NCBI GenBank assembly: GCA_041664345.1
Contig: JBAYKX010000012.1
Span: forward strand, 4,781-68,780
DNA: 64,000 bases
Direction of reading: 5' to 3'
DNA from: Salinivirgaceae bacterium
GTDB lineage: Bacteria; Bacteroidota; Bacteroidia; Bacteroidales; SZUA-534
Under the pieces are notes generated by a model that worked only from the letters and a program-made list of their open reading frames with translations, was not told the DNA's origin and searched no databases. Below, in pieces: positions 31,332 through 60,669 of this stretch. The stretch's first letter is position 1, and each line of letters begins with the position of its first letter. Made by a program: the position numbers and the translations under genes.

Positions 31332-31345
31332 TACATAATAATTAT

Positions 31346-32230: not shown

Positions 32231-32411
32231 TCTTTCGGGCTTATCTGCAATCGCAATAGATTGGTAGATTTTTAGACACAAGATATGAGACATGAGATGT
32301 GAGACAAAATATATCTTATTGGAAATCATCACATAATCTGTTTGTCAATACTTTTTACATACAACAGATTATTATTTTTTATGAAAATATAACGAACTAG
32401 TGCAATTTAAA

Positions 32412-33422: not shown

Positions 33423-33435
33423 TAACCGGAATTGT

Positions 33436-35298: not shown

Positions 35299-35318
35299 AG
35301 ATTTAAACAACAAAAGAA

Positions 35319-36788: not shown

Positions 36789-36800
36789 CCTTTTTATGAT

Positions 36801-37700: not shown

Positions 37701-38008
37701 ACATGAGATTAGAGATTAGAAGTTGAAAATTAGTAGCAGGAATACCGAAGTTGGAAAAGCCCCAAAGGGGCGTAAGAACAAAACCCGGGGCAACGCCCCG
37801 GGTTAATAGGAAAACGACCAAAGCGGTGCATCCAACCATGTTTCAATGGAATGGTAACGCTACATGCATCGCAAAATAGATAAAGCAATTGGAAATAGGA
37901 AGATGGGAGACCGAAGTCAGAAGTCCGTTACCAGCAACCAGTCCCGATAGCTATCGGGAAGAAATCAGTTACCAGAAACAAATCATTACTTAACTAAAAA
38001 TAAAGACA

Positions 38009-39028: not shown

Positions 39029-39046
39029 TTTTTAAACAAACACTAG

Positions 39047-44931: not shown

Positions 44932-46698
44932 ATGAAGAAAAAAATTATATTCAATCGCTCATTATATATTTTCCTTGGATTTATGCTTGTATCGGGCTGC
45001 GATACCTGGGAAAAGGACATCAATATTAACCCCAATAGCCCATCAACCGGTGGGGAATCGACCAGCACTTATGACTTTGAACCCAGTGAGTTTATGCAGG
45101 ATATGCTTTACAATGTGGTGCATGGTTGGGATTACATTTATTGGAACGTAGGATCGGCAGTATGCGAATACCACGGAAAAACTATTAGTTTGAGCCAGGG
45201 TAACCGGCACCAGGCATGGCATGCTTTTGACGACTCCAACGATGGTGGCCCTTGGGTACAGGGATATAAAGCCGTTCGTTACATTAGAAGTATGCGGAAT
45301 GCCGCCGTTGCTAACGATGATAAAGAATATCAGGCTATTGCTACTATTTGGGAATGTTATGATTTTTTTGGCCTTACCCTGTTGTATGGAGACATTCCAT
45401 ATACCGAATCCATTATGGATGATGCCCCGTTGACACCTGTTTACGATAAACAGAAGGATATTTATTTCACCCTTATATCTAAACTGCGGACAGCCAGCAA
45501 AAACCTAGACCCAACCGCGATGATTGACGCAAATACGGATTTAATTTTTTATGGCGATGTAAGCAAATGGAAAAAATTTGCCAATACTTTGCTAATCCGG
45601 TATGCCATGTATATGGCTGATGCTGCACCCGACTCTGCAGTAGCTCTGCTGAACGAAATTTTACTGAACCCCGAGGTTTACCCAGTTATGGAATCGAATG
45701 TCGACAACGCCATGTTCCATTTCGATGGGGTTCAATACCAATCTCAATACTACAAGTTATCTTCATCCAAAATTGATGAAGCCCCATTCAGCAATGTGTT
45801 TATTGAGCGATTGGTGAGCCTGAAAGATCCCCGCTTGCCTATTTATGCCAGACCAGCGGCTTTGGTTCATACCGATGCAACAAAAAACGTGCTTCCTTCC
45901 AACGAAGGGGTTGATAAATATGCCGGCCATATTTATGGCATCACTACCGACAACGCTTATGCCTCGGCTTGGAATGATGGCGCCAATTACGCATCAAAAT
46001 TGGGTGACTATTTCAGGACGGAAGATGATAAAGGGACTGCCACTTTGGCTTGTGCCACAGTGCCATTAGCATTAGCCACCTATTCCGAAATGTTATTCTT
46101 TTTGGCCGAAGCTACCGAAACAGGAATGATTACCGGGCAAACCGCCAGACACTATTACGAAAGCGCTATTGAAGCCTCCTTTGATCAATACAAAGCCACT
46201 TTTACCAGCGATAAATATAGCCGTGCTTTTGGCAGTAGTGCCCTCAATTCGGTAACCGATTATGTGAGCCAACCCGATGTATTATATACCGGAGGCCGCG
46301 ACAAGCTTACCCTAATTGCCGAACAAAAATGGATTGCCGATTTTTTGCTGATGTTTGAACCTTATTTTGATCATCGCAGAACCATGCTGCCAGAATTGAG
46401 AGCTTCATCAGGTTCTATGGCATATAATTCTACTGGAAGTGCTACAAAATGGCCATCAAGGTCAGCCTACCCAAATTCAGAAACATCAACCAATAAAACC
46501 AATGTTGATAATGCCAACGCCAATGCCTTTGATATACCCGTTGTGGATCAGGCTACCCGGAACCTAGCGCTCATGTGGCTTATGCAACCCAAAGGTCAAA
46601 ACTGGCTGCAAATGCCTGTATTTCAGGAACCAAATTACAAGGCCGATTATCCGGCACGGTCAACCGATGCTGACTTTGGAACCAATTTCAATAACTGA
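44932..46698 (+). CDS. SusD/RagB-family nutrient-binding lipoprotein
   Basis: Immediately downstream of susC-like. Lipobox LVSGC. Helical TPR-like sequence, about 590 aa. Confidence 0.85.
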   Translation: MKKKIIFNRSLYIFLGFMLVSGCDTWEKDININPNSPSTGGESTSTYDFEPSEFMQDMLYNVVHGWDYIYWNVGSAVCEYHGKTISLSQGNRHQAWHAFDDSNDGGPWVQGYKAVRYIRSMRNAAVANDDKEYQAIATIWECYDFFGLTLLYGDIPYTESIMDDAPLTPVYDKQKDIYFTLISKLRTASKNLDPTAMIDANTDLIFYGDVSKWKKFANTLLIRYAMYMADAAPDSAVALLNEILLNPEVYPVMESNVDNAMFHFDGVQYQSQYYKLSSSKIDEAPFSNVFIERLVSLKDPRLPIYARPAALVHTDATKNVLPSNEGVDKYAGHIYGITTDNAYASAWNDGANYASKLGDYFRTEDDKGTATLACATVPLALATYSEMLFFLAEATETGMITGQTARHYYESAIEASFDQYKATFTSDKYSRAFGSSALNSVTDYVSQPDVLYTGGRDKLTLIAEQKWIADFLLMFEPYFDHRRTMLPELRASSGSMAYNSTGSATKWPSRSAYPNSETSTNKTNVDNANANAFDIPVVDQATRNLALMWLMQPKGQNWLQMPVFQEPNYKADYPARSTDADFGTNFNN

Positions 46699-46761: not shown

Positions 46762-47718
46762 ATGAAAATGAGGAATTTTTATATAATCCTGTCTTTGGCT
46801 TTCCTTTTGGGAATGGCCTCATGCGATAATGTGGATGAAGGATACCGCATTGATTACGGGGAATCAACGGCTCAATTTACAGTAACCCTTTTAACTGCCG
46901 ACCGAGGAGCGGTGGGCGACACCATCATTTATGCGTTACAAGCAACATCGGATGCCAACATTAAATCAATGGTAGTAAATAACTCCGTTTCCGGCGGAAC
47001 AGGAACAGGGTATGTTATCCCAGGAGGTGAAACGGATCCACTCATCGATCATGTGTATGGAACCATCCAACCAAACACCAAAGCATTTAACATTCGGTAC
47101 TATTATGTGGTGTCGCAAGATACTTTAGATGCAACCATCAATTTTATCATGATTGATGAATTGGGCAAAAAAGAGACGACTCATGAATTATACACCGTAC
47201 CATCAATCGTATCGTACGACAGTCTTGTTTTGTTTTGCAAATCACAGTCGTTAGCCGATGGATTTTCAACTTCGGATGGAATGGTCTATCACAATCTTCA
47301 AGAGTACGAAGAAGTAAGTGAGATAAATAAAGCCGTTCAGGAAGCCTTAGACATGGTGTTTATAGTTGACAATGGCATTGGTATGCTTGTAGCTCCCTAC
47401 AGCGGAATATTCTACAGCTCAATGGCAATAAAAAACAAGACCTTATTTAAATTGACTCCCGATGTTAGTTCATCCGATTTTGATAACCTTACCAATGCCA
47501 CCTTGTCGATTATTACCGAAGAAAATGAAGTTAAAAAAGGAAGTACAAGCATTGACAGTTTAAAAGTTGGTGATATTCTAGGTTACCGGACCGACTTGGC
47601 TTCTACCAACCCATATCACTTTGGGTTGATCCGCATTAACGCCATTCATCCCACCAATGTGGAATACTATGATGGTGTAAGCTATATGATTGAAATGGAT
47701 GTAGTAACTCAAAAATAA
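46762..47718 (+). CDS. PUL-associated lipoprotein, unknown function (candidate surface glycan-binding protein)
   Basis: Lipobox LGMASC. Beta-rich. Position directly after susD-like. Confidence 0.5.
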   Translation: MKMRNFYIILSLAFLLGMASCDNVDEGYRIDYGESTAQFTVTLLTADRGAVGDTIIYALQATSDANIKSMVVNNSVSGGTGTGYVIPGGETDPLIDHVYGTIQPNTKAFNIRYYYVVSQDTLDATINFIMIDELGKKETTHELYTVPSIVSYDSLVLFCKSQSLADGFSTSDGMVYHNLQEYEEVSEINKAVQEALDMVFIVDNGIGMLVAPYSGIFYSSMAIKNKTLFKLTPDVSSSDFDNLTNATLSIITEENEVKKGSTSIDSLKVGDILGYRTDLASTNPYHFGLIRINAIHPTNVEYYDGVSYMIEMDVVTQK

Positions 47719-47724
47719 AAAACC

Positions 47725-50313
47725 ATGAAAAAAGGGATTATACTGTTTTACCTGATACTTGCCTTGCTAACAACAGCAAAACCGCAAGATTATTCAGGTT
47801 ATACCCGTTGTGCCGAGCAAGATTCCCTGGCCTTGATAGCTTTCTACAATGCCACTGACGGCCCCAACTGGACTTCCAATTCGGCTGCTGATTTTTCAAC
47901 GGCCTATCTGTCCGACGATGTGCTTACCTACTATACGGTTGATTATCCCAATGCCGGTTTGGGTAAATGGCTCGAAGGACCTGTAAAAAACTGGTTTGGA
48001 GTAACCCTTGCCAAGCGGCAAATTGGTAACACTACCGATTCAGCCTGGCGGGTAATCCATTTGCATCCCACACTAAGTAGGCGTTCGGCCGGAGAGAATA
48101 AACTGGCGGGTTATGTTCCAAAGGAAGTGGGTTTGTTAACAGCCTTAGAATGGTTTAAAGTAAATGGAAACGTTGGTTTGAAAAACACCGAGTTACCCGA
48201 CGAATTATATCAACCAACCATTCTGGCTTTTGATTTTGAAGGAGCCTTTTTTTCTGGAATCCTAAGCAGTGCTTTACGCAATTGTACTAACTTAAAATAT
48301 CCCAATTTCCGCGATAATTATTTCGACAGCATACCCGTAATTGATTTTATTACCGATCCCTGGGCTTCGTTATGGGTTTACCGAAACCAAATTTCATGGA
48401 CCACCCTGGAGCCTACGGTAGCATATATGGTTGATAAAGGTTATTCGTATGAAGCCTGCGATCAGCATGATGTAGGCCGGGCATCTGAAATTGTGGTTGC
48501 ATCAGGCGGTAGTATAACACTAACATGCAACGATGCCGGAACACAGGGAACCTGTACTTGGTATAAAAAGGGTTTTAATACCTACATGACGGGTACCACT
48601 TATACCGATAACAATGTTACTGCCAGCGATACAGGCAATTATACCGTGGTTGTGGCTAACGAGTATATCCGATTAAACGATGGCAACGCCGACTATGTGA
48701 ATACTTTTACCAAACCCATTCATGTTACATTTGTTCCTTCGGTTCCGGTGGTTAAAAAGGTCGTTTCCTCTTATAGCGGTAACACAATTTCACTCACCAT
48801 CAGCAAACCGATGGCTATCCCAGTATTAGCTCAAACCTCTGAATTTTCAGTAAGCAAAAATGGCAACCCGGTTACTGTTACTGGAATAAGCCGTACCGGT
48901 CGGTTGAATAATACCATCAATCTCGAATTAGAAGCATCAATTTTGAAAGATGATGTGGTAACCCTTTCATATACCAAAGGTACCGTGGTTGATGTTAATG
49001 GCGGTGCGTTAGATTCATTCACAGCAAAGGCGGTAACAAATATCGCCCGTGAAACCCCAACTATTTTATCAGCCATTACCAATGCTAACGGGGAAAGTAT
49101 AATTCTGGAGTTTGACCAATTTATAGATCCCGCCACATTTAATGCCAGTAATTTTACAGTTACGGCCAACACAGAGGTTAATGTTACCGGGATAACCCTA
49201 ATAAATGGAGATATCAACACGAACATCTCCAAAAAAATTGCCATCAACCTCGATGGGGCTTTTAACAGTACCGACATTATTTCGGTAACCTACCAAAAAG
49301 GCAATTTAACAGCTTTGTACGGAGCGGCTCTCCAATCATTCTCTGATTTTGTGGTGGAAAATATTGTGAGCGAAAACAAGGTTTCAATGAACTTAAAAGT
49401 AGTTGATGGTACCAGTATGATTGGCCAAGTGGTTGTTAAAGGCGATATGATGAACCTACCCTTCCCGCTTTTCGATGATGGCACCAATGGCGATGAAGTG
49501 TCAGGCGATCACACGTGGACCATAAATTTACTGTTGAACGATGGCAGTTACGATTGGGAAGTGTATAACCGCACAGTAACCATTACCTACGATACGGTTG
49601 CAAGCACTGATCCAATTACCGGGGTCATTACCTATACCATTACGCCGGTGCAAAACAACAGCGATTCATTGATAAGCGGTACTGCAAACCTCAACCTGAT
49701 CGTTTCTTACGCCCAAGGTTCGGTAACTGGCGATACCGTATATAATTACCGGACCAATTCGGTAACAATGATCCTGGACATGAAAGAATACTTGGCTGCC
49801 AATGCAGTGCAAGCTATTGAACCCTATATGATGGGAATTAACGATGATTGGGGTACTGGTATGTTAATGAAAGCAACAGACCAAAATCATCCTGATTCCA
49901 GCTACATAGCTACAGCAAAAGGATATTTGCCTGGTGAAACCGTAACATTCAATTTCAGGAACGGCAACACTTGGGAAAATAGCACCCCAGCAAAACGGTC
50001 GCATACCGTTGTTGCTACCGATACCATATTCTGTACTTTTGGACAATTAACCGGCATTCCCGGAAATTCCCAAACCGCAGAAAAAATAAGCATTTATCCA
50101 AACCCAGTGGCCAATGGCTACCTCTGGATACGGTTGCCTAATAATGAAGCTATCAAAGAAGTAACACTCTATACAATTTTTGGACAGAAAGTTTTTGCTA
50201 TCCAAAATGCTGCCTCACCGGTGGAAGTAACATCGCTGAAACCCGGAATATACTTTTTACAGATAACCGATGGTTCCGGAAGCAAATTCCAAAGCCGATT
50301 TATTAAAGAATAA
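47725..50313 (+). CDS. T9SS-secreted multidomain protein: LRR N-cap/LRR-like region, Ig-like domain, beta-sandwich repeats, CTD
   Basis: EQDSLALIAFYNATDGPNWTSN cap motif shared with the next gene. Ig-like ITLTCNDAG...TWYKKG...ASDTGNYTVVVAN. Por CTD (ISIYPNPVANG...GIYFLQITDGSGSKFQSRFIKE). Confidence 0.75.
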   Translation: MKKGIILFYLILALLTTAKPQDYSGYTRCAEQDSLALIAFYNATDGPNWTSNSAADFSTAYLSDDVLTYYTVDYPNAGLGKWLEGPVKNWFGVTLAKRQIGNTTDSAWRVIHLHPTLSRRSAGENKLAGYVPKEVGLLTALEWFKVNGNVGLKNTELPDELYQPTILAFDFEGAFFSGILSSALRNCTNLKYPNFRDNYFDSIPVIDFITDPWASLWVYRNQISWTTLEPTVAYMVDKGYSYEACDQHDVGRASEIVVASGGSITLTCNDAGTQGTCTWYKKGFNTYMTGTTYTDNNVTASDTGNYTVVVANEYIRLNDGNADYVNTFTKPIHVTFVPSVPVVKKVVSSYSGNTISLTISKPMAIPVLAQTSEFSVSKNGNPVTVTGISRTGRLNNTINLELEASILKDDVVTLSYTKGTVVDVNGGALDSFTAKAVTNIARETPTILSAITNANGESIILEFDQFIDPATFNASNFTVTANTEVNVTGITLINGDINTNISKKIAINLDGAFNSTDIISVTYQKGNLTALYGAALQSFSDFVVENIVSENKVSMNLKVVDGTSMIGQVVVKGDMMNLPFPLFDDGTNGDEVSGDHTWTINLLLNDGSYDWEVYNRTVTITYDTVASTDPITGVITYTITPVQNNSDSLISGTANLNLIVSYAQGSVTGDTVYNYRTNSVTMILDMKEYLAANAVQAIEPYMMGINDDWGTGMLMKATDQNHPDSSYIATAKGYLPGETVTFNFRNGNTWENSTPAKRSHTVVATDTIFCTFGQLTGIPGNSQTAEKISIYPNPVANGYLWIRLPNNEAIKEVTLYTIFGQKVFAIQNAASPVEVTSLKPGIYFLQITDGSGSKFQSRFIKE

Positions 50314-50344: not shown

Positions 50345-53300
50345 ATGAAAAAAACCATTTTACTACTACTTGCAATTTGCCTTTTACCCGGGTTTTCAGG
50401 GTTGAAAGCTCAGGTTCAGGCAACGGATTCCCTGGCCTTAGTGGCTATTTACAATGCCGGCGATGGCCCTAACTGGACCAGTGCCACCAATTGGCTTACC
50501 GGGCCGGTAAATACCTGGCAATATGTTACCGTAACCGGTGACAGAGTTACTCAACTAACTATTAACCAAGCCAACATGGGGGGTACCCTTTCTCCAGCTA
50601 TTGGCCAGTTAACAGAACTTACCCGTTTCGAAATCCAGGATGCCCCAAACCTTACCGGGCCAGTTCCTGCCGAATTATGGAACTGTACCAAAATTACAAG
50701 GTTGCAAATCAAATTCACCGGAATGACCGGTCAAATGCCATCGGCAGGTTTAGCAAACATGACCGCCTTGGGTGAAATCAATTTCCAACAAACCTACTTG
50801 GGTGGAACCATTCCTGCGGAAGTTTTCAATTTACCGGCACTGTCAAAAGCATATCTACACGAAAGCAATTTTACAGGTTCTGTTCCAACAACAGTAGCCA
50901 ATGCCACCCAACTTACCCGTTTGTATCTGCAAAGCAATAAATTGGTAGGTCCTTTAACATTTGTAAATATTAAAAATGCTTCGGCAAAGGTTCAAATTGC
51001 AGGAAACTTTTTTACTTATGCCGATGTAAAACAATATCACGACTCGGCGGCTAATTACTCCCTTTCCGACGATTATCAGTTAGCCAAAGAAATAACAACT
51101 ATTGATGCCCCATTGAATACAGAATACACCCTCGATGGAACAGTTACCGGGGCCGAGGCTTATGCGTGGTTTAAAGAAGGTTTAAGTACCGTTTTGTCAA
51201 CCGATCCTACATATCAGGTTTCGGCTACTGCCTTAGATGCAGAAGGCACTTACACTTGTAAGGCACAATCATCGCTGGTTGCTCATTTCGATATCCGTTC
51301 TATCTACAAAATCACATTGAATGTTACCGATCGCCAACGCGACTCGTTAGCTTTGGTAGCTATTTACAATGCCGGCGATGGGGCCAACTGGACCTCGGCC
51401 ACAAACTGGTTAACGGGTTCAATTGATACCTGGCAATATGTAACATTTGCCAATGGTAGGGTTACTGAGCTTACCATTAACCAAGCCAACATGGGAGGCA
51501 CTCTTTCTCCAGCCATTGGTGAGTTAACTGAACTTACCCGCTTCGAAATCCAGGATGCTCCAAACCTTACCGGCCCCGTTCCTGCCGAATTATGGAATTG
51601 CACCAAAATTGGCAGGTTACAAATCAAATATACCGGAATGACCGGCCAAATGCCATCGGCAGGTTTAGAAAACATGACCTCGATGTATGAAATAAACTTT
51701 CAGCAAACCTACCTGGGTGGAACCATTCCTGCCGAAGTATTTAATTTGCCTGCACTTACCAAGGCATATTTGCACGAAAGCAACTTTACCGGTGCTGTGC
51801 CTGCAACCGTTGCCGATGCTACCCAATTGGAGCGTTTGTATCTGCAAAGCAATAAACTGGAAGGTCCTTTAACTTTTGTAAATATTAAGAACACAGCAGC
51901 AAAAGTTCAGTTAACCGGTAACTTCTTCACTTTTGCAGATGTAAAACAATATCATGACTCATTAGCAAATTACACCTTTAGTGATGATTACCAATATGCC
52001 AAAGAAAATGTAGTAGCCGTTCTTGCTGAAGGTTCAGAATATTCGTTAACCGGAACAACTACAGGTGGCGAGGCTTATGCCTGGTTTAAAGACGAAGCAA
52101 CCACCCCAATCTCAACTGAAGATACCTTGGTTATTTCCGATTTCGGTTTCGATGATGAAGGAACATACATTTGCAAGGCTCAATCGTCGTTGGTGGCTAA
52201 TTTCGACATCCGTTCCGTTTACGAACTGTCGTTGAATTATACAGATCTCCAACGCGACTCATTGGCCTTAGTTGATATTTATAACGCAGGCGATGGAGCA
52301 AATTGGATCAATGCTACCAACTGGCTCACAGGAGAAGTAAGCACATGGGCTGGTGTAGTTGTTTCTGGTGGTAGAGTTACCGAGCTTTCTACTGAAGGCA
52401 TGAACATGGGTGGCACACTTTCCCCATCAATTGGTATGCTTACCGCATTAACCTCACTAAAAATAATGGGTCTTGAAAATCCTGTAACCATTGCGCCGGT
52501 AAGCGGTTCAATTCCTGTTGAAATATGGAACCTGACCAATCTGAAAAAGCTACAGATTAAATTCACCAAAATTACCGGTGGTATCCCTGCGGGAATCGAA
52601 AGCATGGTAAATCTGAGCGAAATCAACTTCCAACAGACTTATTTGGGAGGAACCATTCCTGCAGAAGTATTTAACTTACCCGCTCTTAAAAAAGCGTACC
52701 TGCACGAAAGCAACTTTACCGGTGCCGTTCCAGCAACAGTTGCAAATGCTACCCAATTGGAACGTTTGTATCTGCAAAGCAATAAATTAGAAGGTCCATT
52801 GGCTTTTGTAAATATTAAAAACACAGCCGCCAAAGTTCAATTAACTGGTAACTTCTTCGCTTTTGCCGATGTAAAACAATACCACGACTCTGCAACTAAT
52901 TATACCTTTAGCGACGACTATCAGTATGCACAGGAGGCCCAAAACTTCAGTCTGACTGAAGGCGACGAAGTGACATTTGAATTATATGTACCTAATGGCG
53001 AGGCTTACGCTTGGTTCTATAACGATGAGGCAACTCCAATTTCGGGCGATACTGTTTATGCCATTTCATCGGTATTACCTACCGATACAGGAGTGTATGT
53101 TTGTAAAGTACAAAGTAGTTTAGTAGCCAACTTCGACATCCGTGCCAAATTCACTATTGATACAGTTATTGCCGTAGCGAAAGTTCCTGCATTTGTATCG
53201 GGAGCCTCAAACGAAGCTGGTACAGTTATATCATTGGTTTTCGATTTTGAATTGGCCAATCCTACAGCAGAAGCCGCCAGCTTTACCTTTAAAGAAGGCG

Positions 53301-53743
53301 ATGTAACCAGTCCTGTTACTGCGGTTAGCCTAAACAGCACCGATGCTAAAACCATTGAGTTGACTTTGGAATCGAAAATTGTAAATGAGTCTTCTGCATT
53401 GACCATTACATATACACCGGGAGCCTTAGTTGGAACCACCGGAGGTGTTGTAGAAGCTTTTGGTCCAGTTAGCGTAACCAACAACTTGATCAACTCAATT
53501 AAAGATGCCAAAATTGTAGCCAAAATCTACCCAAATCCTTGCGACAACTACCTTAAAGTTGAAAGCAAAGAAACAATGGAAGCAGTTACAATTATTGACA
53601 TCACGGGACAAACCGTTTGGATGCAAAACAACATAAATGAAAATTCATTGGTTATTGAGACATTAAATTTGAATTCAGGTATTTATTTCGTAAAAGTTAA
53701 ATGCGCTGATTCAATGTATGTTCAAAAGATAACTAAAAAGTAG
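50345..53743 (+). CDS. T9SS-secreted protein with three tandem 305-aa LRR-plus-Ig-like modules
   Basis: Signal peptide. 3 x (DSLALV.IYNAGDG.NW cap + five or six 24-residue L.G.IP-type LRRs + Ig-like D.G.Y.CKAQSS domain). Beta-sandwich domain. Por CTD (KIYPNPCDNYLKV...GIYFVKVKCADSMYVQKITKK). Confidence 0.8.
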   Translation: MKKTILLLLAICLLPGFSGLKAQVQATDSLALVAIYNAGDGPNWTSATNWLTGPVNTWQYVTVTGDRVTQLTINQANMGGTLSPAIGQLTELTRFEIQDAPNLTGPVPAELWNCTKITRLQIKFTGMTGQMPSAGLANMTALGEINFQQTYLGGTIPAEVFNLPALSKAYLHESNFTGSVPTTVANATQLTRLYLQSNKLVGPLTFVNIKNASAKVQIAGNFFTYADVKQYHDSAANYSLSDDYQLAKEITTIDAPLNTEYTLDGTVTGAEAYAWFKEGLSTVLSTDPTYQVSATALDAEGTYTCKAQSSLVAHFDIRSIYKITLNVTDRQRDSLALVAIYNAGDGANWTSATNWLTGSIDTWQYVTFANGRVTELTINQANMGGTLSPAIGELTELTRFEIQDAPNLTGPVPAELWNCTKIGRLQIKYTGMTGQMPSAGLENMTSMYEINFQQTYLGGTIPAEVFNLPALTKAYLHESNFTGAVPATVADATQLERLYLQSNKLEGPLTFVNIKNTAAKVQLTGNFFTFADVKQYHDSLANYTFSDDYQYAKENVVAVLAEGSEYSLTGTTTGGEAYAWFKDEATTPISTEDTLVISDFGFDDEGTYICKAQSSLVANFDIRSVYELSLNYTDLQRDSLALVDIYNAGDGANWINATNWLTGEVSTWAGVVVSGGRVTELSTEGMNMGGTLSPSIGMLTALTSLKIMGLENPVTIAPVSGSIPVEIWNLTNLKKLQIKFTKITGGIPAGIESMVNLSEINFQQTYLGGTIPAEVFNLPALKKAYLHESNFTGAVPATVANATQLERLYLQSNKLEGPLAFVNIKNTAAKVQLTGNFFAFADVKQYHDSATNYTFSDDYQYAQEAQNFSLTEGDEVTFELYVPNGEAYAWFYNDEATPISGDTVYAISSVLPTDTGVYVCKVQSSLVANFDIRAKFTIDTVIAVAKVPAFVSGASNEAGTVISLVFDFELANPTAEAASFTFKEGDVTSPVTAVSLNSTDAKTIELTLESKIVNESSALTITYTPGALVGTTGGVVEAFGPVSVTNNLINSIKDAKIVAKIYPNPCDNYLKVESKETMEAVTIIDITGQTVWMQNNINENSLVIETLNLNSGIYFVKVKCADSMYVQKITKK
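50426..53170 (+). repeat. 3 x 915-bp in-frame tandem repeat (LRR-Ig module)
   Basis: Units start at 50426, 51341 and 52256 (gattccctggcc.../gactcgttagct.../gactcattggcc... atttacaatgccggcgatgg). Roughly 85% nt identity by eye between units 1 and 2, with many differences at third codon positions. Confidence 0.85.
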
Positions 53744-53771
53744 TTTTAGTAGTAGGTAAATTTTCTCATTG

Positions 53772-53807
53772 AAAAGAGATGCAAAATTTGCATCTCTTTT
53801 CTTTTTC
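53772..53807 (+). terminator. rho-independent terminator after the LRR-Ig gene
   Basis: aaaagagatgcaaa-at-ttgcatctctttt followed by ctttttc. Confidence 0.7.
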
Positions 53808-53822
53808 AAAGTTTTATCAGCA

Positions 53823-53837
53823 AGTCACGGTGTGACT
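53823..53837. promoter_or_regulatory. palindrome AGTCAC-N3-GTGACT, copy 1
   Basis: agtcacggtgtgact. Perfect 6-3-6 palindrome, about 325 nt upstream of the PAP2 gene. Confidence 0.3.
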
Positions 53838-53887
53838 TATTGATTAAAAGGCACTTATTAAATCTGTCTAGGTTATTTTAATTAAAG

Positions 53888-54160: not shown

Positions 54161-56281
54161 ATGAAACATATTATTAAACTTTTTGGCATTTATTTTTTTA
54201 TAGTTTCGCTTGGCATAGCGGGTTGTAATACCCCATCGGCTAAGGAAAAATCACAAATTGATGAAAACGAATTTATTGTCGAATTGCCGCAAGTATCCTA
54301 TCCACTACCCGCAGTGGATCATATTTCAAACAATAGCAATCCGGAAAAGGCAAACAGTATTAACCATAATCCACTTGTTTATCTGCTTCGCGGTATAAAT
54401 GATATTTGGAAAGGAACAACCGATGCCTATCAAATTGCTTCAACACAAAATGGGCCTGGAAGCACTGACTACGAAGAAGGAAATCCAATTATTGATTCAG
54501 TTATTTGGCGTGAGAATATTCAATATGTGTTAAAAGTAACCCGAAACAGAACTGATGAAGAGGCAATTCATGCTTATTTGGATGAAAACAGGGCGAAGTA
54601 TTACAGTGTAATTGATGGTTTTGGCCCGCTAACCGAGGAATATGTAAAATATTCGGGAGCTTATGTTGATTTACCCTATATTGAAAGCGCCCAGGTTTTA
54701 GAAGATGTTCATTATCAATGCAATTATAACGACCATCCAAAATTTGCGGGCGACGAAAACAGTCCATTGGGGCCAGTTGTTAGGCTTAACCGTGATTTTA
54801 GAAACGGAAACTCAAGCTCAAATTGGGTAAAATACCTGTATTCAACACCAAGGCCATGGCGTATGAACGATACAGGAGCTGTTAATTTTTTAGGAACAAC
54901 CTACAATCCTGTTACCCAAAAACCAACCTATCGTTGCGTTGATAACGAAGGCAAAGAAACATTTAAAATATTTGACAACTACGAAAGCAGTGTAAAAATA
55001 ATTCCCGGCTTGGTATGTTCCAGAAGGGCCCACGACTTTATTTACGACGACAACAACCCCTCGTCCAACGATCTTTATACCAATACCACCGACAACAAAA
55101 GAGTGGACAACGCTTATCCAAGCGGACATACCAATGCCGCTTTTCTTTCAGCATTAGCTTATGCCTATGCCTTTCCCGAACGTTTTCCGGAAATGGTTTA
55201 CCGAGGAGCGTTGCTGGGCGAAAACCGTATTGTTGCCGGAATGCACTCGCCTGTTGATGTTATTGGAGGAAAAATAATGGCCCTTACGCTGGCATGCTCG
55301 GCTTTAAATGAGGATTTAGTTTTGAAAAATGCCGAAAAAGCAGTGGAAACCATGTACCATTTCTTTGGTGCCAAAGCCGATAGCCAAAACATAAGTTTGT
55401 ACGATTATGCCCATCGGGAAATTGAAAACCCCAAAGGATATACAAATGGAGAATATGTGAATGTGCATGTTTTCAACAACAATTTTTACGACAATAAAGC
55501 ACTGATAAAGAAACAATATCGCGAATGGCTGACCTACGGATTTACCCAAGACACTACAAAAGCCCATCAGGAACCCATTGTCCCCAAAGGTGCTGAGGCA
55601 ATATTAAAATCCCGGTTTCCCTATTTAAGCGACAATCAAAGGCGGGCCGTTTTATATACAACCGAAATTCCTTCGGGCTATAAAATACTCGACAAAACCA
55701 ACGGTTGGGGACGAATTGATTTACTTGCCGCTTCCGATGGCTATGGATCGTTTATTGGTTCAGTAAATGTGAATATGGATGCATCGCTGGGCAGGTTTAA
55801 TGCATCGGACACCTGGGGAAATGGTATCGATGGTGAAGGTTATTTGACTAAAAGAGGCACAGGAAAACTGATACTTACCGGAAATAACAAATATAGCGGA
55901 GGAACTACGATACAAGGGGGAATTTTGGCCACAAATTCAGAAACAGCATTGGGAAAGGGCGATGTGCTTATCGAGAAAGAAGGTCAGATCGAAGTGAACC
56001 AATCCCTAACAGTAAAAGGTAATTTTATGCAAAATGGCGGTACCCTTCAGGTGAACATTAATTCCGGGAATATTACTCAAATTAGGGTTGAAGGACAGGT
56101 GAAATTAGCGAATAGCACATTGCTTGTCCATTTTAATAGCGATATTGTACCGGTGGCAAAAGATACGGTAGCAATCATTCAGGGCAGTAAAATTTCAGGA
56201 AATTTTGAAATTCTGAAAGCAAACGGATATGAATTATCACAAGTGGAGATTGGTAATGTTCTTTATGTTGTAGTCGAGTAG
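54161..56281 (+). CDS. lipoprotein PAP2-superfamily phosphatase (class A acid phosphatase / haloperoxidase-like) with C-terminal autotransporter-type beta-strand repeats
   Basis: Lipobox LGIAGC. Complete PAP2 tripartite motif: KYLYSTPRP (Kx6RP), YPSGHTNA (PSGH), NRIVAGMHSPVD (Rx5Hx3D). C-terminal GTGKLILTGNNKYSGGTTIQGGILA PATR-like repeat. Confidence 0.8.
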   Translation: MKHIIKLFGIYFFIVSLGIAGCNTPSAKEKSQIDENEFIVELPQVSYPLPAVDHISNNSNPEKANSINHNPLVYLLRGINDIWKGTTDAYQIASTQNGPGSTDYEEGNPIIDSVIWRENIQYVLKVTRNRTDEEAIHAYLDENRAKYYSVIDGFGPLTEEYVKYSGAYVDLPYIESAQVLEDVHYQCNYNDHPKFAGDENSPLGPVVRLNRDFRNGNSSSNWVKYLYSTPRPWRMNDTGAVNFLGTTYNPVTQKPTYRCVDNEGKETFKIFDNYESSVKIIPGLVCSRRAHDFIYDDNNPSSNDLYTNTTDNKRVDNAYPSGHTNAAFLSALAYAYAFPERFPEMVYRGALLGENRIVAGMHSPVDVIGGKIMALTLACSALNEDLVLKNAEKAVETMYHFFGAKADSQNISLYDYAHREIENPKGYTNGEYVNVHVFNNNFYDNKALIKKQYREWLTYGFTQDTTKAHQEPIVPKGAEAILKSRFPYLSDNQRRAVLYTTEIPSGYKILDKTNGWGRIDLLAASDGYGSFIGSVNVNMDASLGRFNASDTWGNGIDGEGYLTKRGTGKLILTGNNKYSGGTTIQGGILATNSETALGKGDVLIEKEGQIEVNQSLTVKGNFMQNGGTLQVNINSGNITQIRVEGQVKLANSTLLVHFNSDIVPVAKDTVAIIQGSKISGNFEILKANGYELSQVEIGNVLYVVVE

Positions 56282-56328
56282 TTTTGTTTACGGCTATTAT
56301 GAGAGATAAACCCCAAAAATTTTTAAAG

Positions 56329-59091
56329 ATGAAGATACATCATTCTTTTTTAACCTTGGTTTTAGTCTTTGCAACCTTTGTTGGGAATGCACAATCAGTG
56401 ATTCGCAACAAAAGTTATTTCGATAGCTTAAATGACACCCACGATGTAATTGCGCTTCCCAATTGGGGACCCTATTCTAAAAAATATGCCGGCATTTCGC
56501 ATATTCCCGAAATTTCAACAGGCATGCGCTTCGATGTTACAGCCTTGCCGGGATATTACCGCAACCGGGTGATGGTGCCCAACGTGCTTTTCGAATCGGG
56601 TTATTATCCGTGGGACATTAACAAAGAATTGTCGAAAGTTACCTACCGGTACGAACTGGAGTGGAAAGACAAAGTTTATGTTGATGTTACCTATTCAACT
56701 TTAGATACTTCAACGGTATTGGTAAGCATGGAATGCGTAAACCAAACTATGTTGCCCCAGGAACTGCAATTGAATCTGGCCGGATTTATCAACTATCCGG
56801 AACCTTATGCCAATTTTCAAGCCAAGCATAGCAACCAAGTTACGTTCATCAATGCCGTCTCATACACCCATCTTCAATTTGCCAAACCCCGCCCGTCGGA
56901 CAATCTGGTTTACGATGGTTGGTTTCGTGGCGAAACCCGCAATGCCGATTTTTTAAATGGAAACGGCATTGGCAAAGGCTTTGGAACCGATAAAGGCGAC
57001 TGGGTCACATACACCGTTCCGCTCCAGAACAATGAAAAAGAAGGGATTCTTACTTTACGGTACCGCATGAAAGAGAACAACTCCAACGCTTTGGTTTTTT
57101 CCGGATTGGTGAATGAAACCCTTCAATTGAAAGGAACCGGCAACTTTGAACTGATACAAGTCCCTTATAAATGCGATAAAAATGAAGCGGAGCTAAAACT
57201 AACTGCCGCAGGAGGGTGCGAAATTGAACTCGATGGCTTTTTTATGGGCTCGACAAGTAATTCTAAATCCATTGAAATAGTGCCCATTGCGAAGAAATTT
57301 ATTCCAGAATTTGTTAAAAACCTACAAGCAGGAACCCTGTTGCTAAAATATCCCGATGTAGCTGTTTATTACGGAATGGCATGGGATTATCCATCATCGT
57401 TTGTGCGCGAAATTGTGGATGAAGAGCTGGATGTGATTTTTAAAAAATACGTGCACGAGCACAACTATCTGGTTTTCCCGGGTGATGAAAAAGGTCATTA
57501 CATTAATGTGTTTATGCGCCCTGTTGAGTTGGAACCCATGAGCAGCCGAACCGTTTACAGCATTGTTTGTACGGGAACCAAACCGCAGGTGGAAAACCAA
57601 CTAGCCCAATTCAGTAAAAACCCGGAGAGCTTTGTTTCAAAAGGGGAAAAAGCTGAAAACATCTTTGAGGGCGATTTGGAGCAGGGAAAACCCTTCCAGT
57701 TCAGCCAGAACATGATGAGGGCCGCATTGCAATACAACATTGTGTATCCCATATACACGCAAGGAGAATTTATCCGCCACTTTACCCCAGGAAAATGGTG
57801 GAACAGCCTATATACTTGGGATGCAGGTTTTATTGCTTTAGGATTGTCTGAAATTGATATCGATAAATCCATTCAGTTCCTGAACACCTATACCACACCC
57901 GTGGGAAGCCAGTCGGCATTCATCCATCACGGTTCGCCAGTTCCCGTGCAAATGTACGCTTTTTACGATCTCTGGAACAAAACGCAGTCGAAGGAATTGC
58001 TTACCTATTTTTATCCGAGGCTGAAACAATATTACGAATTTATGGCGGGTCGTTCGGGCAGTTCTACCACCAACCCATTCAAATCGGACCTGTTAAAAAC
58101 GTGGGATTACTTTTACAATTCCGGTGGCTGGGACGATTACCCTCCGCAAAAAGCCGTGCGCGACAACCATTTGGAAGCCACCGTTTCGCCGGTAATTACC
58201 ACGGCACATATAATCCGAGTTGCCAAAATATTACGGAAAGCGGCTATAGAATCGGGCCACGAAGCCGATGTAAAAACGTACGATAACGACATTAAAACCT
58301 TTACCAAAGCCTTACAAACAGTAGCTTGGGATGCAAAAAGCGGTTATTTCAGTTACATGGTCCACAATTCGCTCGGAAACCCCAAAACTTTTTACACGGA
58401 TCCAAATAGTGGCGCCAATTACAACATGGGTTTAGATGGTGCCTATCCCATTTTTTCAGGTATCTGCACCCCCGAACAGGAAGAAATATTGCTCGATAAA
58501 ATATTTTCCGAAGAACACATGTGGAGCAAAGCCGGAATTTGCGTAGTGGACAAGCAGGCTCCCTATTACCGAATTGACGGGTATTGGAACGGTGCTGTAT
58601 GGATGCCGCACCAATGGTTTATGTGGAAAACCATGTTCGATATGGGGCGGACCGATTTGGCCTGGAAAATTGCTGACCGGGCATTGAATGTATGGAAAAG
58701 CGAAACCGACGAAACCTACTTTACCTACGAACACTGGTTTGCAAAAACTGCCCGTGGTGCAGGCTGGCACCAGTTTGGAGCATTGTCGGCTCCGGTACTC
58801 AACTGGTATGCCGCTTACTACAAACCGGGCACCGTTACCACCGGTTTCGAGATTTGGATTGAGAGCCAATCGTTCAACAGCGACCATTCGGCCTACCAAG
58901 CCAGCCTTTCGTTTGATGAAGCTACCCATGCCCACAAACGCAGCATGGTGGCTTGCCTGAATCCAAATTTTACTTACGAAGTTTTAGTGGATGGTAAAAA
59001 AATAATTGCCCAAAGCAGGTACCCGGGATTACTGGAAATTGAACTTCCGGCAAGTAATAAACCCTGTAAATTGGTGATAAATAAACAATAA
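56329..59091 (+). CDS. glycoside hydrolase, (alpha/alpha)6-barrel GH63/GH37-like (MGH1-like) with large N-terminal beta domain
   Basis: Signal peptide from the ATG at 56329. C-terminal half has WWNSLYTWDAGFIALGL, GGWDDYPPQ, YYRIDGYWNGAVWMPHQWFMWKTMFDMG, resembling the trehalase/GH63-type catalytic barrel. The family call is approximate. Confidence 0.55.
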   Translation: MKIHHSFLTLVLVFATFVGNAQSVIRNKSYFDSLNDTHDVIALPNWGPYSKKYAGISHIPEISTGMRFDVTALPGYYRNRVMVPNVLFESGYYPWDINKELSKVTYRYELEWKDKVYVDVTYSTLDTSTVLVSMECVNQTMLPQELQLNLAGFINYPEPYANFQAKHSNQVTFINAVSYTHLQFAKPRPSDNLVYDGWFRGETRNADFLNGNGIGKGFGTDKGDWVTYTVPLQNNEKEGILTLRYRMKENNSNALVFSGLVNETLQLKGTGNFELIQVPYKCDKNEAELKLTAAGGCEIELDGFFMGSTSNSKSIEIVPIAKKFIPEFVKNLQAGTLLLKYPDVAVYYGMAWDYPSSFVREIVDEELDVIFKKYVHEHNYLVFPGDEKGHYINVFMRPVELEPMSSRTVYSIVCTGTKPQVENQLAQFSKNPESFVSKGEKAENIFEGDLEQGKPFQFSQNMMRAALQYNIVYPIYTQGEFIRHFTPGKWWNSLYTWDAGFIALGLSEIDIDKSIQFLNTYTTPVGSQSAFIHHGSPVPVQMYAFYDLWNKTQSKELLTYFYPRLKQYYEFMAGRSGSSTTNPFKSDLLKTWDYFYNSGGWDDYPPQKAVRDNHLEATVSPVITTAHIIRVAKILRKAAIESGHEADVKTYDNDIKTFTKALQTVAWDAKSGYFSYMVHNSLGNPKTFYTDPNSGANYNMGLDGAYPIFSGICTPEQEEILLDKIFSEEHMWSKAGICVVDKQAPYYRIDGYWNGAVWMPHQWFMWKTMFDMGRTDLAWKIADRALNVWKSETDETYFTYEHWFAKTARGAGWHQFGALSAPVLNWYAAYYKPGTVTTGFEIWIESQSFNSDHSAYQASLSFDEATHAHKRSMVACLNPNFTYEVLVDGKKIIAQSRYPGLLEIELPASNKPCKLVINKQ

Positions 59092-59095
59092 ACAC

Positions 59096-60658
59096 ATGAA
59101 ATACATCCGAATAAAAACATTCGAAAGAGCAACAAGATATGGATTCATTAGTCTGGTTCTGTGTGTTTTAATTGATTTTTTTATTACATCATGCAACTCA
59201 TCAAACTTCAACATTGAAAAACTGGGCGCCATTGGCGATGCCGAAACACTGAATACCGCCATCATCCAAAAAGCCATCGACCAAGCATCGGCAAACGGCG
59301 GCGGAACAGTAATCATCCCATCAGGGCAATTTTTAACTGGTGCCCTATTTCTTAAAAACGGCGTGGAATTGCACCTCGAAAAAGGAGCCCGGTTATTGGG
59401 TAGTACCAACCGGTTGCATTACGGGCAAGATACGGCGTTTGCGCTCATATCGGCGGATCATCAGCACCACATTTCCATTACCGGACAGGGAATTATTGAC
59501 GGACAAGGCGCCGAAGTGGTAAAAAATTTATACAAACAGTTGCGCTCGGGTCGCTTAAACGATGATCAGTACAACACCAAACACCCCCGTGAACATTCGC
59601 GCCCTGAATTGGTCGCTTTTTCGGAATGTAGAAATCTTTCGGTTTCGGGAGTTACCTTAAAAAACAGTGCTTCATGGGTGCTCACTTTTCGCAACTCCTC
59701 GCAAATAAAAGTTGATAGCCTTACCGTGGAAAGCAGCGTGTATTGGAACAACGACGGGATTGATGTGGTAAACTGCAACGGTGTCCGCATTTCGGGTTGC
59801 GTCATTGATTGTGCCGACGATGGCATCTGCCTCAAGTCGGAAGGTCCAATAAAAGGCATTTGCGAAAATGTAACGGTGGAAAATTGTACCATCCGCAGCA
59901 GTGCCAGCGGCTTCAAACTTGGCACAGGTTCTCACGGAGGATTCAAAAACATTACCGTTCGTAATTTAACAATTTACGATACCTACCGATCGGCCGTGGC
60001 CATTGAATGTGTTGATGGTGGAGTGCTTGAAAACATTGATGTGCGCAACATCACCGCAAAAAACACGGGCAATGCCATTCTTATTCGATTGGGACACCGG
60101 AACAAAGAGGGCGAAGTGGGTTCTCTTAAAAATGTTTACATTGGAAATCTATACGCCGAAATCCCGGCAGGAAAACCCGACATTGGCTATCCGCTTGAAG
60201 GTCCACGGCAGAAATACCCGCACAACGTATTTCCTTCGTCCATCACGGGGCTTCCAGAGCATAAGGTTGAAAACGTAACCCTCGAAAACATTGAACTGGT
60301 TTACCAAGGAGGTGGCAACAAGGAAACAGCCTTTACCGATTGGAAAAAACTGGACGAAGTGACTGAAAACGAAGCGGGTTATCCTGAATTTTCCATGTTT
60401 GGAGAATTGCCTGTTTGGGGCTTTTATGTACGGCATGTAAACGGGTTGAAGTTGGAGAACGTAAAAATCTCAAAAAAAGGGAACGATTACCGTCCGGCAA
60501 TGGCTTTCAACCAGGTTGACAGTTTACAAATAGATGGTCTTACCTTGTTGAACGACAGCGTAATGCCAAACCTTATTCTTAAAAATGTAACGGGTTTTTC
60601 ATCTAAAAACATACTATTACCTTACCCGAGTTTAAAAGGCATTTATACATGGAAGTAA
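59096..60658 (+). CDS. GH28-family glycoside hydrolase (polygalacturonase-like, parallel beta-helix)
   Basis: NNDGIDVV (NxDG), CADDGICLKS (DD), GTGSHGG (HG) catalytic-region motifs. Repetitive beta-helix turns (ENVTVENCTI, KNITVRNLTI, ENIDVRNITA). Confidence 0.8.
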   Translation: MKYIRIKTFERATRYGFISLVLCVLIDFFITSCNSSNFNIEKLGAIGDAETLNTAIIQKAIDQASANGGGTVIIPSGQFLTGALFLKNGVELHLEKGARLLGSTNRLHYGQDTAFALISADHQHHISITGQGIIDGQGAEVVKNLYKQLRSGRLNDDQYNTKHPREHSRPELVAFSECRNLSVSGVTLKNSASWVLTFRNSSQIKVDSLTVESSVYWNNDGIDVVNCNGVRISGCVIDCADDGICLKSEGPIKGICENVTVENCTIRSSASGFKLGTGSHGGFKNITVRNLTIYDTYRSAVAIECVDGGVLENIDVRNITAKNTGNAILIRLGHRNKEGEVGSLKNVYIGNLYAEIPAGKPDIGYPLEGPRQKYPHNVFPSSITGLPEHKVENVTLENIELVYQGGGNKETAFTDWKKLDEVTENEAGYPEFSMFGELPVWGFYVRHVNGLKLENVKISKKGNDYRPAMAFNQVDSLQIDGLTLLNDSVMPNLILKNVTGFSSKNILLPYPSLKGIYTWK

Positions 60659-60669
60659 TAAACAAGCCA

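Follow-up and report, generated by a model that had tools for sequence, protein, structure and literature searches.

What is an array of plant-type LRR and Ig-like modules with a T9SS sorting domain doing inside a PUL? This question is raised by a 1132-aa protein of a marine Bacteroidota, encoded in the window, which here means the whole stretch of 64,000 nucleotides that was analysed. An earlier note, made from the sequence alone, had described three tandem modules of plant-type LRRs and an Ig-like domain, and this description was borne out by profiles, a PDB search, structure models and Foldseek. The protein consists of a signal peptide, three modules that each comprise a cap, LRRs and an Ig-like domain (305, 305 and 310 aa), an SWM-like beta-sandwich and a type-A T9SS sorting domain:

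50345..53743, forward strand: open reading frame of 1132 aa with an ATG start
50345..50410, forward strand: Sec (SPI-type) signal peptide MKKTILLLLAICLLPGFSGLKA/Q, predicted to be cleaved before Gln23
50426..51340, forward strand: module 1, 305 aa, with helical cap (50426-50542), plant-specific-type LRR1-7 (50543-51025) and Ig-like domain (about 51053-51322)
51341..52255, forward strand: module 2, 305 aa, with cap (51341-51457), LRR1-7 (51458-51940) and Ig-like domain (about 51968-52237)
52256..53185, forward strand: module 3, 310 aa, with cap (52256-52372), LRRs (52373-52870) and Ig-like domain (about 52898-53167)
53171..53494, forward strand: SWM_repeat-like beta-sandwich by sequence likeness, all-beta in the model, probably a stalk or spacer
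53525..53743, forward strand: type-A T9SS CTD, then the stop codon

The direct DNA repeats within the reading frame are spaced 915 and then 930 bp from start to start, with a nucleotide identity of 79–84%. The module starts proposed earlier (50426, 51341 and 52256) are correct, whereas the proposed uniform length of 305 aa, or 915 bp, does not extend to module 3, which has 310 aa because of a 5-aa insertion in LRR2. The number of repeats per module, previously given as five to six, is slightly higher, as six repeats of 24–25 residues are followed by a seventh capping repeat; the structure model has seven concave beta-strands per module. All three modules carry the cap motif DSLALV.IYNAGDG.NW...NWLTG...W..V, which recurs at the N-terminus of an 862-aa protein encoded upstream. 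A single module (module 2) was modelled by AF2 with a pLDDT of 95.7 and a pTM of 0.88. The model suggests that the LRRs and the Ig-like domain of one module hold a defined mutual orientation and thus form a rigid unit.

The signal peptide was read from the sequence as a hydrophobic N-terminus ending in LKA/Q that is kept in orthologues; among 11 orthologues, A22 and V24 are invariant and Q23 is at least 90% conserved. In the structure model of the 1132-aa protein, this segment is a low-pLDDT helix. The Ig-like domain, for which the DxGxYxC motif of the F-strand and a Trp (AYAWF) had been pointed out, is present and forms a beta-sandwich in the AF2 model. With the whole protein, the Pfam matches to Ig_3 (44.9 bits, cut-off 30) and I-set (32.2 bits, cut-off 23.7) are above the cut-offs; one module on its own gives an Ig match of 21.5 bits, which is under the threshold. 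The canonical intradomain disulfide between strands B and F is absent from the three modules, as only the F-strand carries a Cys and the region aligned to strand B has none. The SWM-like region shares 31% identity over 90 aa with an SWM repeat of the neighbouring 862-aa protein, and PF13753 is annotated in orthologues of the 1132-aa protein. The Por/T9SS CTD was recovered as Por_Secre_tail (PF18962) at residues 1061-1129 (E = 5.9e-13, 49.4 bits, cut-off 27) and by TIGR04183 (54.8 bits, cut-off 23). These matches support the prediction that the protein is a T9SS type-A CTD cargo. Such cargo can also be released into the medium instead of being anchored, which counts against surface attachment; for the 1132-aa protein, we infer surface anchoring. 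No machinery of the T9SS was seen within the 64 kb of the window.

Plant-specific LRRs have 23–25 residues and the consensus LxxLxLxxNxL(t/s)GxIPxxLGxLxx (PMC2946307). Both the sequence and the fold of the repeats agree with the earlier assignment to this type. G13 is 96–100% conserved in LRR1, 3 and 5, and P16/17 is 100% conserved in LRR2-5; LRR6-7 alone keep the canonical Asn at position 9, which is replaced or shifted in the other repeats. When the PDB was searched by sequence, the best 52 of the 60 listed matches were plant LRR proteins (FLS2 at 2e-67, then GSO1, MIK2 and PEPR1), and these were followed by SHOC-2. With the model of module 2, the best 50 Foldseek matches were all plant LRR proteins (PGIP, SERK, LRR-RK), including PGIP 1ogq with a TM of 0.55 and SERK ectodomains with target-normalised TM of 0.7–0.82.

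The modules thus resemble the plant-specific LRR ectodomains (PGIP, SERK/BAK1, FLS2 and other LRR-RKs) in their 24–25-residue repeats of the form L..L.L..N.L(t/s)G.IP, with G13 and P16 at about 100%, and in the N-terminal helical cap that is followed by a W..V beta-strand. They differ in the cap, which lacks both a Cys pair and a match to LRRNT_2, in the number of repeats, with just seven per unit and a partly replaced Asn ladder, and in the tandem arrangement of units that each lead into an Ig-like domain. Furthermore, the protein combines a signal peptide of bacterial type with a T9SS CTD, and it has neither a transmembrane helix nor a kinase. The proposed likeness to the plant cap therefore stands in part: it is found in the structure and in a short strand alignment of the W.GV type (W.yV) with FLS2, whereas the LRRNT_2 profile (PF08263) was matched by 0 of 27 modules at E <= 10.

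The earlier note had also considered the combination of LRR and Ig to be a eukaryotic architecture. This did not hold, as 709 bacterial proteins match at E < 1e-5 and LRR-Ig units are common in FCB-group bacteria; many of the 709 matches combine LRR, Ig and Por_Secre_tail and come from Bacteroidota, Chlorobi, KSB1 and Rhodothermota-like organisms. A classical bacterial cap-LRR-Ig unit is that of the Listeria internalins, in which the LRR arc is likewise joined to an N-cap and an Ig-like domain in one rigid unit at the bacterial surface and binds with its concave face. However, internalins have 22-residue SDS22-like repeats, Gram-positive anchors (LPXTG or GW) and one unit per protein, whereas we here find 24–25-residue repeats of the plant-specific type, a tandem array and a T9SS CTD. 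The internalin family was rejected because of the repeat type and because internalins are absent from the best 50 Foldseek matches and the listed PDB sequence matches. LRR surface proteins of Bacteroidota also include BspA of Tannerella forsythia, which carries a T9SS CTD, and the LRR proteins of F. psychrophilum. Unlike the 1132-aa protein, these have TpLRR/LRR_5 repeats, are associated with virulence and lie outside SusC/D operons; this class was rejected as LRR_5 is not among the Pfam matches of the 1132-aa protein at E <= 1. BspA and the F. psychrophilum proteins are regarded as adhesins or ligand binders (PMC7014623; PMC9723704), and the latter are counted among the T9SS-secreted putative adhesins (PMC9723704). 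The literature was covered incompletely, and within it we found no characterised homologue of the family studied here, although one may exist.

The gene lies in the following neighbourhood:

30408..39028, forward strand: complete myo-inositol catabolic operon (aldolase, IolB, IolC, IolD, IolA/MMSDH, IolE, IolG)
39047-41317, forward strand: GH92, 18-bp gap after IolG
41838..44921, forward strand: SusC-like TonB-dependent transporter, gene 1 of the cassette, present in 7/7 relatives
44932..46698, forward strand: SusD-like lipoprotein, 10 bp after SusC
46762..47718, forward strand: 318-aa lipoprotein (LGMASC/DNVDEG) in SusE/F-type position, without Pfam match
47725..50313, forward strand: 862-aa T9SS partner with DSLAL cap, degenerate short LRR, Ig_3, two SWM repeats, an unassigned region and CTD
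53771..53811, forward strand: intrinsic-terminator-like hairpin with a 14-bp stem, then a T-run
54161..63006, forward strand: downstream PUL enzymes
54161-56281, forward strand: PAP2 phosphatase lipoprotein with PATR repeat
56284-59091, forward strand: MGH1-like GH
59096-60658, forward strand: GH28
60649-63006, forward strand: GH92

The PUL context is confirmed by SusC, SusD, two GH92, GH28 and the MGH1-like GH, all on the forward strand, that is, by adjacent susC and susD (at 41838 and 44932) with co-oriented CAZyme genes. Starting from susC, five genes with gaps of 10, 63, 6 and 31 bp form a cassette in which the gene of the 1132-aa protein is the last. The hairpin, which had the longest stem in the terminator scan, closes this unit, and beyond it there is a 417-bp gap before the next gene. 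The same cassette was found in all seven close relatives examined (45–60% identity; two to four modules), including a 315–322-aa gene without Pfam match in the position of the 318-aa lipoprotein and an 857–867-aa counterpart of the 862-aa protein in each of them. It is missing in 3/3 distant LRR-Ig relatives.

The LRR protein had been placed in the usual slot of the SGBPs. This has to be corrected, as the slot directly after SusD is held by the 318-aa lipoprotein and the LRR protein is encoded by the fifth gene, after a second T9SS protein. SusE/F and SGBP-B are similar in that their genes are directly downstream of SusC/SusD and in that they are multi-domain proteins, often multivalent, with Ig-like spacers. 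SGBPs are presumed to capture the substrate at the cell surface (for example PMC4850273, PMC7974029). SGBPs are lipoproteins with beta-sandwich, CBM-like binding domains, whereas the 1132-aa protein has an SPI signal, a T9SS CTD and a putative LRR-arc binding unit; a lipobox is absent from it and present (LGMASC) in the neighbouring 318-aa protein.

The module copies are old and under purifying selection. As suggested earlier, differences between the copies concentrate at third codon positions (59/38/125 by codon position between modules 1 and 2), and the Nei-Gojobori dN/dS is 0.156–0.165 among units, with dS of 1.0–2.1. Amino-acid identity, at 77% between modules 1 and 2 and 61% between modules 1 and 3, is far above chance. 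Relatives have two, three or four modules per protein, and repeated duplications of the first-type module gave rise to the extra copies: the first two modules are 97% identical in P0008, 91% in P0003 and, as given above, 77% in the window, where module 2 is a lineage-specific duplicate. For last modules, the best foreign match is another last module in 26/27 cases, and module 3 is, judged by such sequence matches, orthologous to the last module of relatives.

Across 68 modules, the most common residue at the concave positions 3, 5 and 7 of LRR3-7 reaches an average frequency of 0.89, compared to 0.67 on the convex side. Eleven concave residues are about 100% conserved (Q94, K96, E117, N119, Q121, K141, Y143, H145, R165, Y167 and K188 in module numbering). 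LRR1-2 have a hypervariable concave face, on which the top residue reaches a frequency of 0.34. The non-PUL relatives P0039 and P0031 differ in all eleven patch residues and keep the structural G, P and L residues. The near-invariant concave face of LRR3-7 suggests one conserved ligand per module. We infer that the patch is a putative ligand site and that its ligand would be the substrate of the PUL. The patch could instead be a protein-protein interface because LRR domains bind proteins more often than glycans.

The myo-inositol operon gives an indication of the substrate. NCBIfam equivalogs of IolB, IolC, IolD, IolG and MMSDH are above their cut-offs, and the order iolE-iolG-GH92-SusC also occurs in L006. 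The junction of iol and PUL is verified in these two lineages only; at the other loci, the flanks are too short or the neighbours are others. Neighbours of the cassette across relatives include Phosphodiest, Exo_endo_phos2+Jacalin, alkaline phosphatase, GDPD, PIG-L, PAP2 and the MGH1-like GH. Given the fusion to iol, GH92 and the phosphatase and phosphodiesterase genes, we take a mannosylated inositol-phosphate glycoconjugate to be the probable substrate. GH28 genes are present in the window and at 2/7 loci of relatives and absent from the flanks of several relatives. GH28 has no obvious fit with an inositol-mannoside substrate.

On balance, we lean towards the 1132-aa protein being a T9SS-exported and probably surface-attached multivalent binder, which serves as a dedicated accessory of one particular PUL with the concave patch as ligand site and a mannosylated inositol-phosphate substrate. 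Each module would be a rigid unit in which seven plant-specific-type LRRs lie between a helical cap and an Ig-like domain, with the polar, aromatic and basic concave patch of LRR3-7 as its ligand site, and the Ig and SWM-like domains may be spacers that hold two to four such sites off the outer membrane. The 1132-aa protein would act jointly with the 318-aa lipoprotein and the 862-aa T9SS partner to capture the substrate, or particles or membranes bearing it, beside SusC/D. Candidate substrates are fungal or plant/algal GIPC/MIPC head groups, GPI cores and phosphatidylinositol mannosides. A bolder version, which we consider unlikely, is that the cassette and the iol operon harvest inositol-phosphate glycolipid head groups (GIPC/MIPC, GPI or PIM) from eukaryotic or actinobacterial membranes, with the tandem LRR modules as lectin-like multivalent receptors for mannosyl-inositol-phosphate. 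If true, a bacterial LRR would be a carbohydrate or phospho-glycan receptor, and the PUL would be aimed at glycolipids and not at polysaccharides.

The same patch might dock a protein, be it the 862-aa protein, the 318-aa lipoprotein, SusD or a PUL enzyme, so that the array organises two to four copies of a partner in a cellulosome-like manner. Proteins are the classical ligands of concave LRR faces. The fold is closest to SERK co-receptors and to PGIP, which binds GH28 polygalacturonases, and GH28 genes occur, as noted above, in the window and at 2/7 loci. An invariant patch would fit an invariant, co-evolving partner, and the 862-aa protein is co-conserved at 7/7 loci with a tightly held length. 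However, several relatives lack GH28 in their flanks, the PUL enzymes contain no recognised dockerin-like module, and residues like those of the patch (E, N, Q, K, Y, H, R, Y) are typically seen in sites that bind carbohydrate or phosphate, too. We consider such a scaffold unlikely.

It is less probable still that the array is an adhesin that recognises a eukaryote, such as an alga, fungus or protist, by one of its proteins or surface structures. The ligand would then differ from the transported glycan, and the bacterium would stay attached to the cells or debris from which the PUL harvests membrane glycolipids and glycoproteins. Among Bacteroidota, LRR surface proteins of the T9SS are known, or suspected, to be adhesins, for instance Tannerella BspA (PMC7014623) and the 17 tandem LRR proteins of F. 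psychrophilum that fish plasma induces (PMC9723704). The repeats are moreover closely similar to plant and algal receptor ectodomains, and the hypervariable face of LRR1-2 is the pattern expected of a diversifying recognition surface. Yet the invariant patch of LRR3-7 points to a conserved rather than a diversifying ligand, and the strict linkage to SusC/D in 7/7 relatives, together with the absence from PULs in relatives outside the subfamily, argues for a role tied to the substrate. A role like that of plant PGIP may also be thought of, with the array as a secreted decoy or inhibitor against glycosidases or other proteins, be they from competitors or from the eukaryotic source organism, since the best structural matches in Foldseek are PGIP and an ice-binding protein that resembles it. 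This is very improbable, as the CTD and the spacer domains suggest surface display, a tandem array and a place behind SusC/D in the operon would be unexpected, and supporting context is absent.

To our knowledge, accessory binding proteins of PULs have so far been known as lipoproteins with beta-sandwich, CBM-like domains. The whole PUL subfamily described here uses two predicted T9SS-anchored proteins instead, one of which is an array of plant-receptor-type LRR arcs with an invariant concave patch. If the patch binds the substrate, LRRs would join the modules for glycan capture, and T9SS anchoring would be an alternative way to equip a Sus-like transporter. The family is amenable to testing, as a 305-aa module folds confidently in silico and offers eleven obvious residues for mutation, and the independent, repeated gain of modules is a natural experiment on valency. 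Lastly, the fusion of a PUL with the myo-inositol pathway points to inositol-phosphate glycoconjugates as substrates of marine and sediment Bacteroidota, a class that is so far unexplored.

The LRR-Ig protein (1132 aa; ORF 50345-53743, + strand) is encoded within a polysaccharide utilization locus (PUL), where its gene closes a tight five-gene unit. All genes from 30408 to 63006 lie on the + strand, and SusC, SusD, GH92, GH28 and an MGH1-like GH are found around the gene, in agreement with the PUL placement proposed in the earlier note. The unit comprises the following features:

41838-44921, + strand, SusC; 10 bp to the next gene
44932-46698, + strand, SusD; 63 bp to the next gene
46762-47718, + strand, 318-aa lipoprotein without a Pfam match (LGMASC-DNVDEG); 6 bp to the next gene
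47725-50313, + strand, 862-aa T9SS protein; 31 bp to the next gene
50345-53743, + strand, LRR-Ig protein; terminator, then 417 bp to the next gene
53771-53811, terminator-like hairpin with a 14-bp stem and T-run, downstream of the LRR-Ig gene

The LRR-Ig gene had also been thought to occupy the usual position of a surface glycan-binding protein (SGBP), which does not hold here. The 318-aa lipoprotein directly follows SusD, thus an SGBP-like slot is already filled, and two T9SS proteins come after it. Past its lipidated Cys the lipoprotein has acidic residues (C-DNVDEG), compatible with surface export. The 862-aa T9SS protein starts with a DSLAL..FYN..DG.NW cap as in the LRR-Ig modules; a short and degenerate LRR comes next, and then an Ig_3 domain, two SWM repeats and the C-terminal sorting domain (CTD); about 250 residues before its CTD have no domain assignment. 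The next gene 3' of the LRR-Ig gene (54161-56281) encodes a PAP2 phosphatase lipoprotein that carries a PATR repeat of the autotransporter type, and beyond it lie genes for an MGH1-like GH, GH28 and GH92. After the terminator, another inverted repeat (AAGTCACGGTGTGACTT, about 53823-53840; copy agtcacaccgtgact at 53888-53903) may be a regulator-binding site before the PAP2/GH genes.

A protein search with the LRR-Ig query returned 709 proteins at E < 1e-5. Identity to this query is 43-90% in the close group (P0001-P0027), whose proteins carry two, three or four module copies of about 305-320 aa each and are named just 'LRR protein' or 'T9SS type A sorting domain-containing protein'. In a genome scan, the nearest relatives were found in a Marinilabiliales MAG (90% identity), a Bacteroidales MAG and an uncultured Saccharicrinis. 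We compared the gene context of seven close relatives (P0006, P0007, P0013, P0015, P0027, P0025 and P0017), and all seven have the same order of SusC, SusD, a 315-322-aa gene, an 857-867-aa T9SS protein and the LRR-Ig protein. Varying combinations of genes lie near this cassette: GH92, MGH1-like GH, GH28, PIG-L, Phosphodiest, Exo_endo_phos2+Jacalin, alkaline phosphatase, GDPD and AraC. PIG-L genes are present in two PUL loci (L002 and L004); in a Tenacibaculum locus, an 833-aa PIG-L-domain protein (L009:5326-7827) is directly followed by a distant non-PUL LRR-Ig T9SS relative.

No PUL surrounds any of three distant LRR-Ig-CTD proteins (P0039; P0053, Tenacibaculum; P0028, Chlorobi). We thus conclude that PUL linkage marks one LRR-Ig subfamily, and that the cap-LRR-Ig unit is a common building block among FCB-group bacteria. 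As these three relatives lie in unrelated contexts, a PUL role for every bacterial LRR-Ig T9SS protein is ruled out. The earlier description of LRR-Ig arrays as a eukaryotic architecture is likewise contradicted by how common the unit is in the FCB group.

Upstream of the PUL lies a complete myo-inositol catabolic (iol) operon encoding the aldolase, IolB, IolC, IolD, IolA/MMSDH, IolE and IolG:

29357-30241, AraC regulator, divergent from the iol operon
30408-41317, + strand, iol operon and first PUL GH92

IolB, IolC, IolD, IolG and MMSDH exceed the NCBIfam equivalog/subfamily cut-offs, IolE is the top match for its gene yet under the cut-off, and a class-II aldolase completes the set. A 760-aa ORF without a Pfam match (26197-28479, - strand) is flanked by the AraC regulator and an isoleucyl-tRNA synthetase-like gene. 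GH92 starts 18 bp past IolG, and the iolE-iolG-GH92-SusC junction recurs in a Bacteroidales MAG locus (L006:1-4000), where IolG is 76% identical to that of the window. The iol operon running into GH92, with the junction order repeated in L006, suggests a PUL for inositol-containing mannoglycoconjugates. A mannosylated inositol-phosphate glycoconjugate is the probable substrate, judging from the iol operon, the GH92 and MGH1-like GH genes, and the phosphatases or phosphodiesterases that recur near the cassette, among them an EEP-family enzyme fused to a Jacalin lectin domain. We found no description of an iol-linked PUL in the literature searched (inositol/GIPC and PUL). In three relatives, an Exo_endo_phos2 (EEP)-Jacalin fusion gene directly follows the LRR-Ig gene:

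L001:13528-14895, Exo_endo_phos2+Jacalin gene
L011:12316-13662, Exo_endo_phos2+Jacalin gene
L012:12747-14084, Exo_endo_phos2+Jacalin gene

Inositol-phosphosphingolipid phospholipase C belongs to the EEP family, and the fusion protein is a candidate phosphodiesterase directed at mannose.

By sequence and fold, the LRR-Ig protein belongs to the T9SS type-A cargo class and to the plant-specific LRR class. Its CTD, noted earlier, was recovered by Pfam on the whole protein (Por_Secre_tail, residues 1061-1129, E = 5.9e-13) and by NCBIfam (TIGR04183, 54.8 bits, cut-off 23). The SWM_repeat-like sandwich formed by residues 943-1050 shares 31% identity with one repeat of the upstream 862-aa protein. Pfam also matched LRR_8, LRR_14, LRR_4 and LRR_1; NCBIfam matches to LRR regions of XopAE, XopAC and XopL, three Xanthomonas effectors, were sub-threshold. 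The window repeats agree with the consensus of the plant-specific class (PMC2946307), with Gly13 and Pro16 about 100% conserved. A PDB sequence search returned mostly plant LRR receptor ectodomains, with FLS2 at 2e-67 and further matches to GSO1, MIK2, PEPR1, ERL1, HAESA and BRI1, and also to PGIP.

The full-length AlphaFold2 model (alignment of 11 sequences) has a mean pLDDT of 86.2. As the Foldseek alignments of this model were all smeared along long plant ectodomains (TM 0.12-0.17), we used a model of M2 alone (27 module sequences; pLDDT 95.7, pTM 0.88). It consists of a helical cap, seven short concave beta-strands, corresponding to six 24-25-residue repeats and one capping repeat, and a beta-sandwich; its pTM indicates a predicted orientation of LRR and Ig that is fixed within the module. 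The best 50 Foldseek matches of M2 were all plant LRR proteins, including a PGIP-like ice-binding protein, PRK6 and LRX; SERK1/2 ectodomains reached a target-normalised TM of 0.7-0.82 and PGIP (1ogq) a TM of 0.55. The plant-type assignment of the repeats is thus borne out by consensus, matches and a confident model. The proposed likeness of the cap to LRRNT_2 stands for one strand (W..V), the sole part aligning with the W.GV.C strand of FLS2 in the PDB sequence search, but membership of LRRNT_2 is rejected: the cap is free of cysteines, and at E <= 10 the profile hit not one of 27 modules. In the Ig-like domain, the C-strand Trp and F-strand DxGxYxC are present, and Ig_3, Ig_2 and I-set each exceed their gathering scores on the whole protein. 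The B-strand Cys is missing, and the canonical Ig disulfide is therefore absent.

The modules appear in the window as direct repeats with 79-84% nucleotide identity, spaced 915 and then 930 bp from start to start. Tandem Repeats Finder did not report them, because its longest period is 500.

50426-51340, + strand, M1
51341-52255, + strand, M2
52256-53185, + strand, M3, with a 5-residue insertion in the second repeat

Amino-acid identity is 77% for M1-M2 and 61% for M1-M3. As previously suggested, differences fall mostly at third codon positions (59/38/125 for M1-M2). Nei-Gojobori estimates between units (dN/dS 0.156-0.165, dS 1.0-2.1) show that the copies are old and under purifying selection, and rule out a recent unselected duplication or an assembly artefact. 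For 26 of 27 last modules, the best foreign match is another protein's last module, and by sequence comparison the last modules are orthologous between proteins. The closest relative is inside the same protein for 45 of 68 modules. Compared with two-module relatives, M1 and M2 of the window both look like the first module and M3 like the last; within-protein identity of duplicated first-type modules is 97% (P0008), 91% (P0003) and 77% (window). The ancestral state thus looks like two modules, with extra first-type modules apparently gained repeatedly and then retained under selection.

We found no description of this LRR-Ig family, or of a plant-specific-type LRR as a PUL component, in the searchable literature (LRR, T9SS, SGBP, SusC/D and PUL topics). 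BspA carries a T9SS CTD. It is an LRR surface protein of Bacteroidota (PMC7014623), and LRR proteins of F. psychrophilum are known or proposed T9SS-exported surface proteins (PMC9723704). LRR_5 in PUL proteins was noted only as BACON-LRR_5 fusions (PMC11216935). The Dyadobacter papers name LRR proteins only generically, and the CHU_1279 paper deals with another type of protein.

We compared conservation across 68 modules, with positions 3, 5 and 7 of each LRR as the concave, solvent-exposed positions. In LRR3-7, these are better conserved (mean top-residue frequency 0.89) than the hydrophobic core (0.83) and the convex side (0.67), with Q94, K96, E117, N119, Q121, K141, Y143, H145, R165, Y167 and K188 conserved at 94-100%. 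At these positions, LRR1-2 are hypervariable (0.34). The non-PUL relatives P0039 and P0031 retain the structural residues and differ at every patch residue. A mixed patch of polar, aromatic and basic residues such as this would be expected where the ligand contains sugar or phosphate. The patch is also compatible with a conserved protein partner, which would fit the array being a protein scaffold; we regard this as rather unlikely. An adhesin for eukaryotic cells seems less likely still. That the array is a PGIP-like inhibitor, PGIP being among its sequence and fold matches, is highly improbable.

The best-supported reading, which we hold at slightly better than even, is that the LRR-Ig protein serves this PUL as its dedicated, multivalent capture arm, displayed through the T9SS. 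Its predicted capture role would resemble that of an SGBP or an internalin-type binder, although it is a member of neither family. Each module would carry one binding site, and the Ig and SWM domains would serve as spacers.
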